Made by a program: the position numbers and the translations under genes. Below are positions 3,248 through 57,709 of a DNA stretch of 64,000 nucleotides, piece by piece. How positions within the stretch are numbered: position 1 is the first letter of the stretch; each line of letters opens with the position of its first letter. Under the pieces are notes generated by a model, which was not told where the DNA came from, did no database searches, and was given only the letters and a program-made list of their open reading frames with translations. Source of the DNA: an uncultured Candidatus Saccharibacteria bacterium (GTDB lineage Bacteria; Patescibacteriota; Minisyncoccia; Phycocordibacterales; CAIZLB01); assembly GCA_964368945.1 (NCBI GenBank), contig CAYJDM010000001.1:42474-106473 (forward strand). Direction: 5' to 3'.

Positions 3248-3386
3248 AAGCTTTTTGATGCATCGCACAGCATTTGGTATTTTCAAACATGCATGAGGTC
3301 TTTTGATGCTACTAGCCCTAGCCCATAGTCCGAATCCATCTCACATAGTTGTGCGATGCATCAAAAAGCTCATGCATGTTTGAAAA
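3248..3386. promoter_or_regulatory. Divergent promoter region carrying interleaved inverted repeats and six ATGCAT sites. Segments are A (3248-3269), B (3280-3297), rc-A (3350-3370) and rc-B (3369-3386).
   Basis: aagctttttgatgcatcgcaca and ttttcaaacatgcatgag each have an exact reverse complement about 100 bp downstream, in the same order (A B A' B'). The set overlaps the -35/-10 region of the 3402 gene (TGaTATAAT at 3391-3399) and the upstream region of the DUF4230 gene. Confidence 0.45.
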
Positions 3387-13279: not shown

Positions 13280-13309
13280 TGCGCGATAGGCACAACGAGG
13301 CTTTTCCAT

Positions 13310-13352
13310 GCGTAGAAGAAACCCGGACGTTACGTCCGGGTTTCTTCTACGC
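13310..13352. terminator. Long perfect hairpin (about 20-bp stem) between convergent genes; probable bidirectional terminator
   Basis: gcgtagaagaaacccggacgt-t-acgtccgggtttcttctacgc. Confidence 0.5.
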
Positions 13353-13388
13353 ATCATTCTGTCCAGCCGCTGAATTTTTGTATTCGCG

Positions 13389-36247: not shown

Positions 36248-36334
36248 GGAGAGATGGCAGAGCGGTCGAATGTACTACCTTGGAAAGGTAGCATGGGAGA
36301 AATCCCATCGGGGGTTCGAATCCCCCTCTCTCCG
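36248..36334 (+). tRNA. tRNA-Ser (anticodon GGA)
   Basis: Manual fold. Acceptor stem GGAGAGA/TCTCTCC, discriminator G, anticodon stem-loop CTACC-TTGGAAA-GGTAG, long variable arm and T-arm GGGGG-TTCGAAT-CCCCC. CCA is not encoded. Confidence 0.85.
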
Positions 36335-36341
36335 CTACATA

Positions 36342-36377
36342 ATCAAAACAGGCTGCACTGCTGCAGCCTGTTTTGAT
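36342..36377 (+). terminator. perfect 16-bp stem hairpin immediately downstream of tRNA-Ser
   Basis: atcaaaacaggctgca-ctgc-tgcagcctgttttgat. Confidence 0.4.
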
Positions 36378-36400
36378 TATGTCGAGGAAGAGGTTGATGA

Positions 36401-55752: not shown

Positions 55753-55835
55753 AAATTTGATTTGGATTAGTTGATATTTTTTATAAATATTTGATTAAAA
55801 ATTCATCGATTGCGAAGTCCTGTCCGGATATTTTT

Positions 55836-56351
55836 TTACATATTCTTCTTCACATGCTTCCTATTGATAAGCATGAGGGCGATGATGACAGAGAATGCTA
55901 CGAATGCGAGGAAGGGGATCGTTACGAAGCCGAAATATTCGATGAACTTCGTTGTGCATGATACGCCCGTCGTACAAGGAGCAAGGGTATCAGGAATCCA
56001 TTTGTAATAAAGCAGATTGTGATAGAGGGAGATGATCCATCCTATGATTGCGGCTGGCAATACATAGAGATGCACGAGCCGGTCCTTGCGCACGATTCCG
56101 ACGATAAGCGTCAGGACGAGCGGGAACATGAGGATGCGCTGATACCAGCAGAGGACGCAAGGCGGGTATCCTGCAATATTGCTAAAGTACATGCTTCCCA
56201 AAAAGGCTACGATGGCCTGGACCAGGGCGAGGAGCTGGGCGTTCTTGCCGACCCAGTCCCAGAAGCTCTTCGGCGCGGCAGTCGGGGCCTGGCCAGCAGT
56301 CTCCGGGGTTTGGCTAGGCGCCAGATCCGGAGCGGTTGTGGATGTATTCAT
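55836..56351 (-). CDS. dsbB: disulfide bond formation protein B (DsbB/BdbC family)
   Basis: PCVLCWYQRI and CTTGVSCT cysteine pairs, with four TM helices. Start placed at MNTSTT 56351, which is preceded by TTGAAA-17-TATAAT with the TATAAT 7 nt upstream of the ATG (leaderless). The longer ORF reaching 56444 runs into the inverted repeat. Confidence 0.75.
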   Translation of the reverse strand: MNTSTTAPDLAPSQTPETAGQAPTAAPKSFWDWVGKNAQLLALVQAIVAFLGSMYFSNIAGYPPCVLCWYQRILMFPLVLTLIVGIVRKDRLVHLYVLPAAIIGWIISLYHNLLYYKWIPDTLAPCTTGVSCTTKFIEYFGFVTIPFLAFVAFSVIIALMLINRKHVKKNM

Positions 56352-56398
56352 GAAGAAGATTATAGCCTTTTTGTTGGGTTTTTTCAAAATAATGGCAA

Positions 56399-56502
56399 CT
56401 TTTCCTCCTGCCACATTTCTGCATGCGTAAGTCCTCGGTATCATGAATCTGCCCTTGTTTTCCCCTGCGGATACGCATGCAGAAATGTGGCAGGAGGAAA
56501 AG
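56399..56502. repeat. Perfect 31-bp inverted repeat (arms 56399-56429 and 56472-56502, 42-nt spacer) between the divergent dsbB and ZIP-transporter promoters
   Basis: cttttcctcctgccacatttctgcatgcgta and its exact reverse complement tacgcatgcagaaatgtggcaggaggaaaag. Confidence 0.7.
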
Positions 56503-56552
56503 AGGCGGGCAAATTCCTATAATTAGTGGTAGGATAAGATTCAATAGTCTTC

Positions 56553-57389
56553 ATGGATTCTTCATTCGTTTTTCAGCCAAATTTGGTCTATGGCCTCGGC
56601 GCGGTCATCATTGTCAGCCTGATTGCGCTCGTCGGAGCAGGGCTTTTTTTCATATCGAAGGAACGCAGCGCAAAAATCATCCCATATCTCGTCAGCCTTG
56701 CCATCGGCGCGCTGCTTGGTGATGCGATCCTGCATTTATTGCCTGAAGCATTCGAAGGTGCGGGCTCGATCTGGCTCTTCATTGTCGCTGTCTTGGGAGG
56801 ATTCGGGATTTTTTATCTATTGGAAAACGTCCTGCACTGGCACCATAGCCATGACGGCGATGAAAAGCATCATGGGCATGGCCAGCATATCGGAGGGATG
56901 ATTACGGTCGCGGACGGGCTGCACAATCTCATTGATGGCATCATCATCGCCCTCGGATTCCTGATCAGCAGGGAAGTCGGGCTCGCCACGACGATCGCAG
57001 TGATCCTGCATGAGGTTCCTCAGGAGATCAGCGATATGGGCCTGCTCATTTATGCGGGCTGGTCTCGCAAAAAGGCTCTGATTGTGAATTTTTTGTCCGG
57101 CTGTACGGCGATTGTCGGCTTTCTCGTCGTTTTTCTCCTTGATGCGCATTCATTCGAGGTTGAGGCTTGGCTGCCATACTTGCTCGCACTGGCTGCAGGA
57201 GGATTCATATATATAGCCGTGATCGACCTTATTCCGAATTTGCATGCAAAATCTCACCGGGGACATGAGCATGGCTGCGATGATGATGGTCGTCCACATG
57301 GCGTTCAAGGCAAAGGCTCTTTCTGGAGGCATGTGCCCATGATGGTCCTGGGGTTTGGGATTATGTTGCTGCTATTCGTGCTTGAATAA
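56553..57389 (+). CDS. ZIP-family metal (zinc) transporter, ZupT-like, with a His-rich loop
   Basis: HEVPQEISDMGLLIYAG and HWHHSHDGDEKHHGHGQH. Confidence 0.85.
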   Translation: MDSSFVFQPNLVYGLGAVIIVSLIALVGAGLFFISKERSAKIIPYLVSLAIGALLGDAILHLLPEAFEGAGSIWLFIVAVLGGFGIFYLLENVLHWHHSHDGDEKHHGHGQHIGGMITVADGLHNLIDGIIIALGFLISREVGLATTIAVILHEVPQEISDMGLLIYAGWSRKKALIVNFLSGCTAIVGFLVVFLLDAHSFEVEAWLPYLLALAAGGFIYIAVIDLIPNLHAKSHRGHEHGCDDDGRPHGVQGKGSFWRHVPMMVLGFGIMLLLFVLE

Positions 57390-57709
57390 TGGGTTTCCTG
57401 TATCGACTCTCAGGTCCTATCGCTGTCTTTGCGTTGTCTTTGCGTTTTTTGATTTTTTCGAGCTTCTTCTGAGCGGCTTGATGTTTTTAGCTCTAAGTTT
57501 CAGTTCTATCGGCAAGGTTGTTGCCGATAGGTGTGGCCCCACGGCTTAAGATATGGCTAAATTAAGATAATACAGAAAACTCTGAAAATGCAGAAAATGC
57601 CTAAAGCCAAATCAATGTCTCAGATACAATTAATATAAATACGTTCGTGAATACATTCGCGCTCGGAATCTTTATCAAAACTTCATGTCCGGTGTATACT
57701 ATACAAACC

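Follow-up and report, generated by a model that had tools for sequence, protein, structure and literature searches.

A perfect 31-bp inverted repeat between the divergent dsbB and ZIP transporter genes of a Candidatus Saccharibacteria bacterium, probably an insertion from an undescribed family of intergenic hairpins

This study examined a perfect inverted repeat in 64,000 nt of DNA from an uncultured Candidatus Saccharibacteria bacterium (here called the window, meaning the whole stretch that was analysed). The repeat lies between the divergent genes for DsbB and a ZIP family metal transporter and, on balance, is probably an inserted copy of a non-autonomous intergenic hairpin family of about 100 nt, akin to REP, REPIN and MITE elements. 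The family is previously undescribed and matches no curated RNA family. Besides the window copy, it was found as seven copies in three related CPR contigs (L003, L005 and L138) and as at least nine copies in GC-rich contigs, and 17 copies were compared. The repeat and its neighbours, which belong to a gene cluster with the order mscL-dsbA-dsbB / ZIP-glutaredoxin-FKBP, are as follows.

55836 to 56351, minus strand: dsbB, 171 aa, DsbB (PF02600, E = 3.8e-13)
56399 to 56429: P1 outer stem, left arm, 31 nt, CTTTTCCTCCTGCCACATTTCTGCATGCGTA
56430 to 56471, minus strand: conserved core, 42 nt, with boxes invariant in 8 CPR and 9 Myxococcota-like copies; read on the minus strand, TCCGCA (56471-56466), an inner helix GG/CC formed by 56465-56464 and 56438-56437, an apical part of 25 nt and finally GAGGAC (56436-56431)
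56472 to 56502: P1 outer stem, right arm, the exact reverse complement of the left arm
56553 to 57389, plus strand: ZIP family metal transporter, 278 aa (PF02535, E = 1e-44)

A repeat search confirmed what an earlier, sequence-only reading of this DNA had described, with the two arms being exact reverse complements over 31 nt (100%) and 42 nt apart. That reading had also called repeats of this size rare in 64 kb, which held, since this one is the longest inverted repeat in the window among those with arms up to 300 nt apart, and the 31-nt arm has no match elsewhere in the window, even with up to three mismatches, nor in any of 100 shuffles. Its length is far beyond chance expectation. The peptide YACRNVAGGK, said to occur in open reading frames of both strands, was seen in the translations of both. 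Prediction of the folding energy, one of the checks that had been suggested, gave -67.9 kcal/mol for the plus strand and -67.2 kcal/mol for the minus strand when the repeat was folded as a single strand (z about -9), a value equalled by none of 200 shuffles. An intrinsic terminator was considered and rejected, as none was reported by the terminator scan and there is no U tract, the stem having a T run at its start and an A run at its end on both strands.

The nearest relatives of the ZIP transporter are metagenomic proteins, and the named ones lower in the list belong to Paceibacteria and other Patescibacteria (CPR). The metagenomic contigs encoding the closest of these relatives, given here by L-numbers, have a conserved gene order and served for all comparisons of the locus. 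Another suggested check, a search for further copies, returned related hairpins with other arms, at other positions in the related contigs; these were traced through short BLAST matches of the window loop that clustered in unannotated spacers.

L003, 4801-4908: dsbB-ZIP spacer, arms differing in sequence from those of the window and placed at another point relative to the promoters
L003, 5808-5907: ZIP-grx spacer
L005, 6681-6778: dsbA-dsbB spacer
L005, 8676-8772 and 8774-8877: two copies in tandem, ZIP-grx spacer
L138, 5282-5377: downstream of mscL, 27-bp perfect arms and a 42-nt loop
L138, 11598-11688: between FKBP and a tRNA-like sequence

The ZIP protein of L003 is 71% identical to that of the window, and L002 carries an apparent remnant of the hairpin. 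While the 64-kb window holds a single copy, L003, L005 and L138 have two to three copies per locus of 11-21 kb. In the dsbA-dsbB spacer of the window (55810-55830), the sequence TTGCGAAGTCCTGTCCGGATA resembles collapsed family boxes (AGGACTTCGCAA on the minus strand against AGGACTTAGCAA), and may be a relic of the element, L005 having a complete copy at that position.

All 17 copies share the boxes TCCGCA and GAGGAC (12 invariant positions) and a bulged C. On the strand that reads TCCGCA...GAGGAC, the order is outer stem, a short irregular junction, TCCGCA, inner helix, loop, GAGGAC and the other arm, with an unpaired C or CU directly after GAGGAC. Pairing of UCC with GGA gives a 3-bp helix and leaves a GCA/GA internal loop. 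The inner helix begins directly inside the boxes and consists of GG/CC, ACA(G)/(C)UGU or GCAG/CUGC depending on the copy, and so covaries, while the apical loop has about 12-25 nt according to how far the inner helix extends. The outer stem has 26-33 nt per arm and stays complementary, although its sequence differs between the CPR copies; similarity between arms of different copies was at chance level, like that of shuffles, in 32 of 36 pairs, whereas core similarity was significant in most. A covariance model built from seven CPR and four GC-rich cores, with the window copy left out, recovered the window core as a full-length match (56422-56477, minus strand; 21.7 bits, E = 3e-4), the only significant one in 64 kb, the next-best match having E = 0.13. 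Perfect arms, seen in three CPR copies, are a sign of youth or of active maintenance.

The GC-rich copies came from a scan of metagenomes with a pattern of the two boxes, which matched at least 120 loci, mostly by chance. Among the matches listed there were no new CPR copies, but at least nine copies of a GC-rich hairpin in at least eight loci, on contigs of about 70% GC. These contigs look like Myxococcota, as they encode cysteine-rich-repeat lipoproteins that we take to be typical of that phylum. Their hairpins have 31-nt arms that are mostly fully paired (up to 30-31 pairs), with the boxes directly inside the arms, a bulged C and a 9-bp inner helix. Seven stem pairs were changed on both sides among the eight distinct rows, a number reached by none of 500 shuffles. 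The boxes of these copies were imposed by the search pattern, while the stems, stem length, bulge, inner helix and geometry are independent of it, and with some reserve the GC-rich hairpin is regarded as a true relative of the CPR family. It forms the centre of a dispersed repeat of about 300 bp that occurs in unrelated genomic contexts and adjoins unrelated genes, and one contig, L026, has two copies 1.6 kb apart.

The 300-bp repeat was observed at L026 7470-7760 and 9080-9390, and also in L019, L049, L062, L071, L089, L104 and L105. It contains several covarying hairpins, for example GGATGAG...CTCATCC against GGCAGAG...CTCTGCC, and in L089 one of its borders is triplicated in tandem. It had no match in Rfam or in the plasmid collection.

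The spacer between dsbB and the ZIP gene was compared among the orthologous loci, as had also been suggested, and the repeat proved absent from most of them. It is missing from seven of ten orthologous spacers (8 of 11 contigs) of identical gene order, and spacers of 58-71 bp without the inverted repeat are found in L001, L004, L005/L006, L007/L008, L010, L136 and L137. The closest relative is L001, in which the ZIP and DsbB proteins are each 93% identical to those of the window; its spacer measures 69 bp against 201 bp in the window, and the pairwise alignment of the two is interrupted once, by a clean gap of about 133 nt on the L001 side. From the spacers of the relatives, including L001, the ancestral state is concluded to be the short one, and the window carries an insertion of about 133 nt between two formerly back-to-back promoters. 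The features that bear on this insertion are these.

56375 to 56507: segment of about 133 nt that L001 lacks, made up of the hairpin plus a few bases beside it; exact borders ambiguous
56394 to 56398: possible 5-bp target-site duplication, first copy, GGCAA (TTGCC on the minus strand)
56508 to 56512: possible target-site duplication, second copy, GGCAA

Only one TTTTGCCAAAA is present at the empty site of L001, and the 5-bp direct repeat TTGCC flanking the window copy could tentatively be read as a target-site duplication. Direct repeats flank the copies unevenly, with TTGCC at the window copy, CTTTAT around the L005 pair, and none at L003b or L138. A flank common to the window and the GC-rich copies, GGAATTTGCC, was dismissed because TTTGCC is already present at the empty site of L001.

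Gene order in more distant relatives differs between dsbB and ZIP. In L138 (7107-9975) and L139 (8069-9984), the interval holds an operon with genes for a Fur-family regulator and a YibE_F membrane protein, to which L138 alone adds a nicotianamine synthase and an acetyltransferase. These genes were lost in the clade of the window, where ZIP is joined directly to the dsbB promoter region. It is plausible that ZIP was ancestrally under the metal control of a Fur-family protein, and the repeat has nothing to do with it. The dsbB-fur spacer of L139 (7928-8016) has a different perfect inverted repeat, with 23-nt arms and a 43-nt AT-rich loop; its geometry is almost that of the window hairpin, but it lacks the TCCGCA and GAGGAC boxes.

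The predicted promoters on either side of the hairpin were compared with those of the same loci.

56359 to 56387, minus strand: dsbB promoter-like site, TTGAAA-17-TATAAT, 11/12 in the consensus scan
56518 to 56523, plus strand: TATAAT hexamer, not conserved in relatives
56527 to 56535, plus strand: ZIP extended -10, TGGTAGGAT, from comparison of orthologous spacers

The dsbB site had been proposed from the sequence alone and was recovered by the consensus scan, with 11 nt between its end and the left arm and with its -10 element 7 nt from the ATG at 56351. This -10 hexamer (ATTATA or AGTATA in plus-strand reading) keeps its spacing to the start codon throughout 10 orthologous loci, and because that spacing is 7 nt in all of them, a leaderless dsbB mRNA is predicted, a prediction conserved across the orthologous loci. 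For ZIP, the sequence-only reading had chosen as -10 a TATAAT at about 56517; the hexamer is present, but the element common to ten orthologous loci is an extended -10 of the form TGnTA(G/C)NAT, which in the window reads TGGTAGGAT and lies further downstream. The old dsbB -35 (TTGCCA in L001) abuts the hairpin in the window, where a new TTGAAA stands at proper spacing, and the ZIP promoter of the window retains the extended -10 only.

These observations can be combined into a scheme in which a hairpin element inserted into the dsbB-ZIP spacer after the lineage split from its closest sampled relative. The two promoters, which overlap within about 69 bp in the relatives, would thereby have been moved about 130 bp apart; new DNA would have taken the place of what used to precede the ZIP extended -10, and the hairpin would have come to stand 11 nt from the leaderless dsbB promoter. 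The conserved, asymmetric centre is probably recognised by a trans-acting protein, which would mobilise the single-stranded hairpin or bind to it. The arms would need only to pair, and their pairing is probably preserved through hairpin-templated correction or because selection acts on the folded strand. The data show the repeat itself, the insertion polymorphism, membership in the family, covariation and the lack of a known RNA family; what we infer is that the element is mobile in CPR genomes, that it has a protein partner and that expression may be affected. Support for the insertion comes from at least seven separate placements in four related genomes, from the perfect arms of three CPR copies and from the GC-rich copies, whose dispersal is clear. 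Counted against mobility are the single copy in 64 kb, so that proliferation in the source genome is not shown, the lack of common terminal sequences among the CPR copies, unlike classical MITEs and REPINs, and the equivocal target-site duplications. No transposase, integrase, reverse transcriptase or HUH enzyme was recognised among the approximately 60 open reading frames of the window.

Among known systems, the likeness to REPINs is considerable. REPINs are REP doublets that form hairpins and are mobilised by RAYT tyrosine transposases (Bertels & Rainey 2011, PMC3116915), and their ends, invariant 16-mers overlapping the REPs, are their most conserved part, with a less conserved spacer (PMC3116915). 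The present family likewise consists of non-coding, non-autonomous intergenic hairpins of about 100 nt, predicted in single-stranded DNA or mRNA, with compensatory stem changes and presence/absence variation. Compensatory changes, a mark of REPINs, occur both in the GC-rich stems and in the covarying inner helix of the CPR copies. Unlike in REPINs, however, it is the ends that vary and the centre that is invariant, and the window has one copy where REPINs number hundreds per genome. Genomes with REPINs carry a cognate RAYT gene (a Y1 HUH transposase), often beside REP clusters, but no RAYT or Y1_Tnp protein and no other transposase family was found among the approximately 60 window open reading frames.

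Copies of bacterial MITEs such as Correia, RUP and Nezha share terminal inverted repeats, because these are bound by the transposase. A MITE-like insertion was one of the options raised by the sequence-only reading, beside a shared operator and a possible cruciform, and is the closest of them, given the small size, long inverted repeats, promoter-proximal intergenic insertion, possible promoter effects and possible short target duplication. It departs from a classical MITE, however, as the ends vary while the centre is conserved, the CPR copies are without a common terminal sequence, the GC-rich hairpin occupies the interior of its repeat of about 300 bp and not the ends, and the window has only one copy.

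Integron attC sites also offer a partial parallel; they carry R boxes (RYYYAAC/GTTRRRY) conserved at the base of the stem, and their top is variable. They are recombination sites read as folded single strands, as is presumed for the present family, and common to both are structure conserved over sequence, extrahelical bases and asymmetric internal loops. The base of the present hairpins is instead variable and has no R box, as seen from the stem bases CTTTTCC, ATTTTCAC, TTTTTTGAC and TGCGAGG, and neither an integron integrase nor a cassette array was found in the window. To our knowledge, none of the K-turn, loop E, the hairpin, twister or pistol ribozyme cores, PyrR or CsrA sites, dif/Xer sites, retron msd or ssoA origins fits the boxes.

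Database searches were in keeping with a family that had not been described. Rfam 15 gave nothing at gathering score in the window, L005 or the GC-rich loci; at E-value thresholds, only generic eukaryotic miRNA precursors matched, with 42-44 bits against gathering scores of 90-96. Blastn against the plasmid collection found no match, the core pattern had 0 matches in viral contigs, and a search of the genome-contig collection with the ZIP protein also found none. In that collection the core pattern matched five times, in unrelated phyla and without flanking stems, and these matches were taken as chance. The literature on CPR or myxobacterial hairpin repeats yielded nothing relevant.

A serious though less likely alternative is a structured RNA that acts in cis, or a site for an RNA-binding regulator, belonging to the envelope thiol-redox/metal cluster (dsbA, dsbB, ZIP, glutaredoxin). 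It would be co-transcribed with its neighbours and would influence how stable they are, how they are processed (RNase III, for example, could cut the duplex of about 30 bp) or how they are translated. All eight CPR copies lie in spacers of one cluster (mscL-dsbA-dsbB-...-ZIP-grx-FKBP) or at its two borders, the only copy of the window among them. By our own arithmetic, six independent placements of this kind have p of about 0.002 given the cluster's share of the loci (31-39%), a figure that depends on counting the border spacers and is inflated by ascertainment, all loci having been fetched around ZIP. The cores of L003b and L005_1 are about 88% identical by our count within spacers that otherwise do not align, and these two copies appear to be orthologous. 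The location in a single cluster and this apparent orthology fit a retained function better than random hopping.

The strands of the hairpins bear on the same question. Where arms are imperfect, the mismatches are G.U on one strand. In all five copies with co-directional flanking genes (L003b, L005_1, L005_2, L005_3 and L138_2) this is the sense strand, which for that reason folds better than the antisense strand by 7-16 kcal/mol. The asymmetry hints either that the transcribed strand is constrained in its single-stranded form or that mutation is biased in connection with transcription. In L138_2 the core is flipped relative to transcription, a sign that both orientations of the core are possible. 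As to strand, the copy in the window is uninformative because its arms are perfect and its genes divergent. Orientation relative to replication was rejected as an explanation, L003a and L003b having opposite directions within 1 kb.

Several observations weigh against the cis-acting RNA. The hairpin is absent at most orthologous loci, including that of the relative with 93% identical proteins; its position varies between genomes; the core of L138_2 is flipped, as noted; and the GC-rich relatives adjoin unrelated genes. In the window, moreover, the copy lies upstream of both the predicted leaderless dsbB promoter and the ZIP -10, so that no known transcript covers it. An inserted hairpin repeat and a cis-acting RNA are not mutually exclusive, because REP-like elements are often co-opted.

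A wider proposal, which we consider rather doubtful, is that the Patescibacteria and Myxococcota-like copies represent one cross-phylum class of module. In this proposal, the asymmetric core of about 40 nt would be read as folded RNA or single-stranded DNA by a conserved protein, one arm would serve to regenerate or correct the stem of about 30 bp through fold-back synthesis or hairpin-templated repair, and the module would be retained preferentially around the thiol-redox/metal cluster in CPR. Regeneration or correction of this kind would explain how arms can be entirely different between copies and yet be perfectly complementary within each.

The sequence-only reading had also offered a locus-specific operator, a double-stranded DNA site that would serve both the dsbB and the ZIP promoter by binding a repressor that senses metal or redox state. 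The repeat does sit between divergent promoters, 11 nt from the dsbB -35, and the Fur-family gene between dsbB and the ZIP operon of the more distant relatives makes metal regulation plausible, but the operator is now very improbable. Dispersed related copies and absence from the 93%-identical relative both argue against it: the repeat is not conserved at orthologous promoters, and the half-sites of an operator would have to be the arms, which are wholly different from copy to copy, and it is a non-palindromic centre that is conserved. No Fur-family protein was found among the scanned window open reading frames of at least 150 aa, a limit that a shorter Fur could escape, and we know of no Fur, Zur or Rrf2 boxes resembling 31-bp half-sites 42 nt apart. 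Finally, although perfect arms are what a very recent duplication would leave, a neutral local palindrome arising by inverted duplication or replication slippage, its family likeness coincidental, is scarcely credible, given that the leave-one-out model recovers the core at E = 3e-4, that the 12 invariant box positions, bulge, inner helix and arm length are common to 16 other hairpins, and that neither arm resembles the empty-site sequence of L001, which also led to rejection of an arm derived from it by inverted target duplication.

Other structures were observed in the window and the related loci. A second complex inverted repeat (3249-3386) separates two divergent genes, one for a DUF4230 protein on the minus strand and the other, on the plus strand, an open reading frame of 1079 aa without a Pfam match; it is rich in ATGCAT, and its 21-nt perfect arms (A) and 24-nt arms of 92% (B) are arranged as A-B...A'-B' and are not nested. 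It was rejected as a member of the family, its similarity being not above chance. A perfect 23-bp palindromic hairpin with a 1-nt loop (13308-13354), between convergent genes for a CAP-domain protein (end 13279) and an MFS transporter (end 13389), may be a bidirectional terminator. A 27-bp hairpin (93%) with a 4-nt loop (36331-36388) begins in the last bases of tRNA-Ser(GGA) (36248-36335). The spacer between ZIP and glutaredoxin is unusually long in the window (about 320 nt) and contains a 9-bp hairpin, CTATCGGCAAGGTTGTTGCCGATAG (57506-57530). All orthologous loci conserve the promoter region of glutaredoxin, CTTTATCAAAACTTCATG...TGTATACTAT, which ends 9 nt ahead of the ATG. Between the same two genes, L005 (8115-8620) and L007 (10790-11330) share a conserved non-coding block of about 470 nt, in which two stretches are 79-84% identical with no reading-frame preference and a terminal hairpin is followed by a T run. 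This block has no Rfam match, is absent from the window and the other loci, and may be an undescribed RNA gene.

Hairpin-forming intergenic repeats are already known; what is new here is the inverted pattern of conservation, the lack of a match to any curated RNA family, and the presence of the same core in a distant phylum. In well-studied bacteria, small hairpin repeats such as REP, REPIN and MITE elements shape promoter architecture and mRNA stability, but almost nothing is known of them in the reduced genomes of CPR. A recent insertion that splits overlapping promoters of envelope redox and metal-uptake genes would represent a natural experiment in promoter rewiring. The inverted pattern, together with the recurrence of the same centre in Myxococcota-like genomes, points to a protein or enzyme that reads the folded strand, and such a protein, if found, would define a new element-enzyme pair or an RNA-protein regulatory module.
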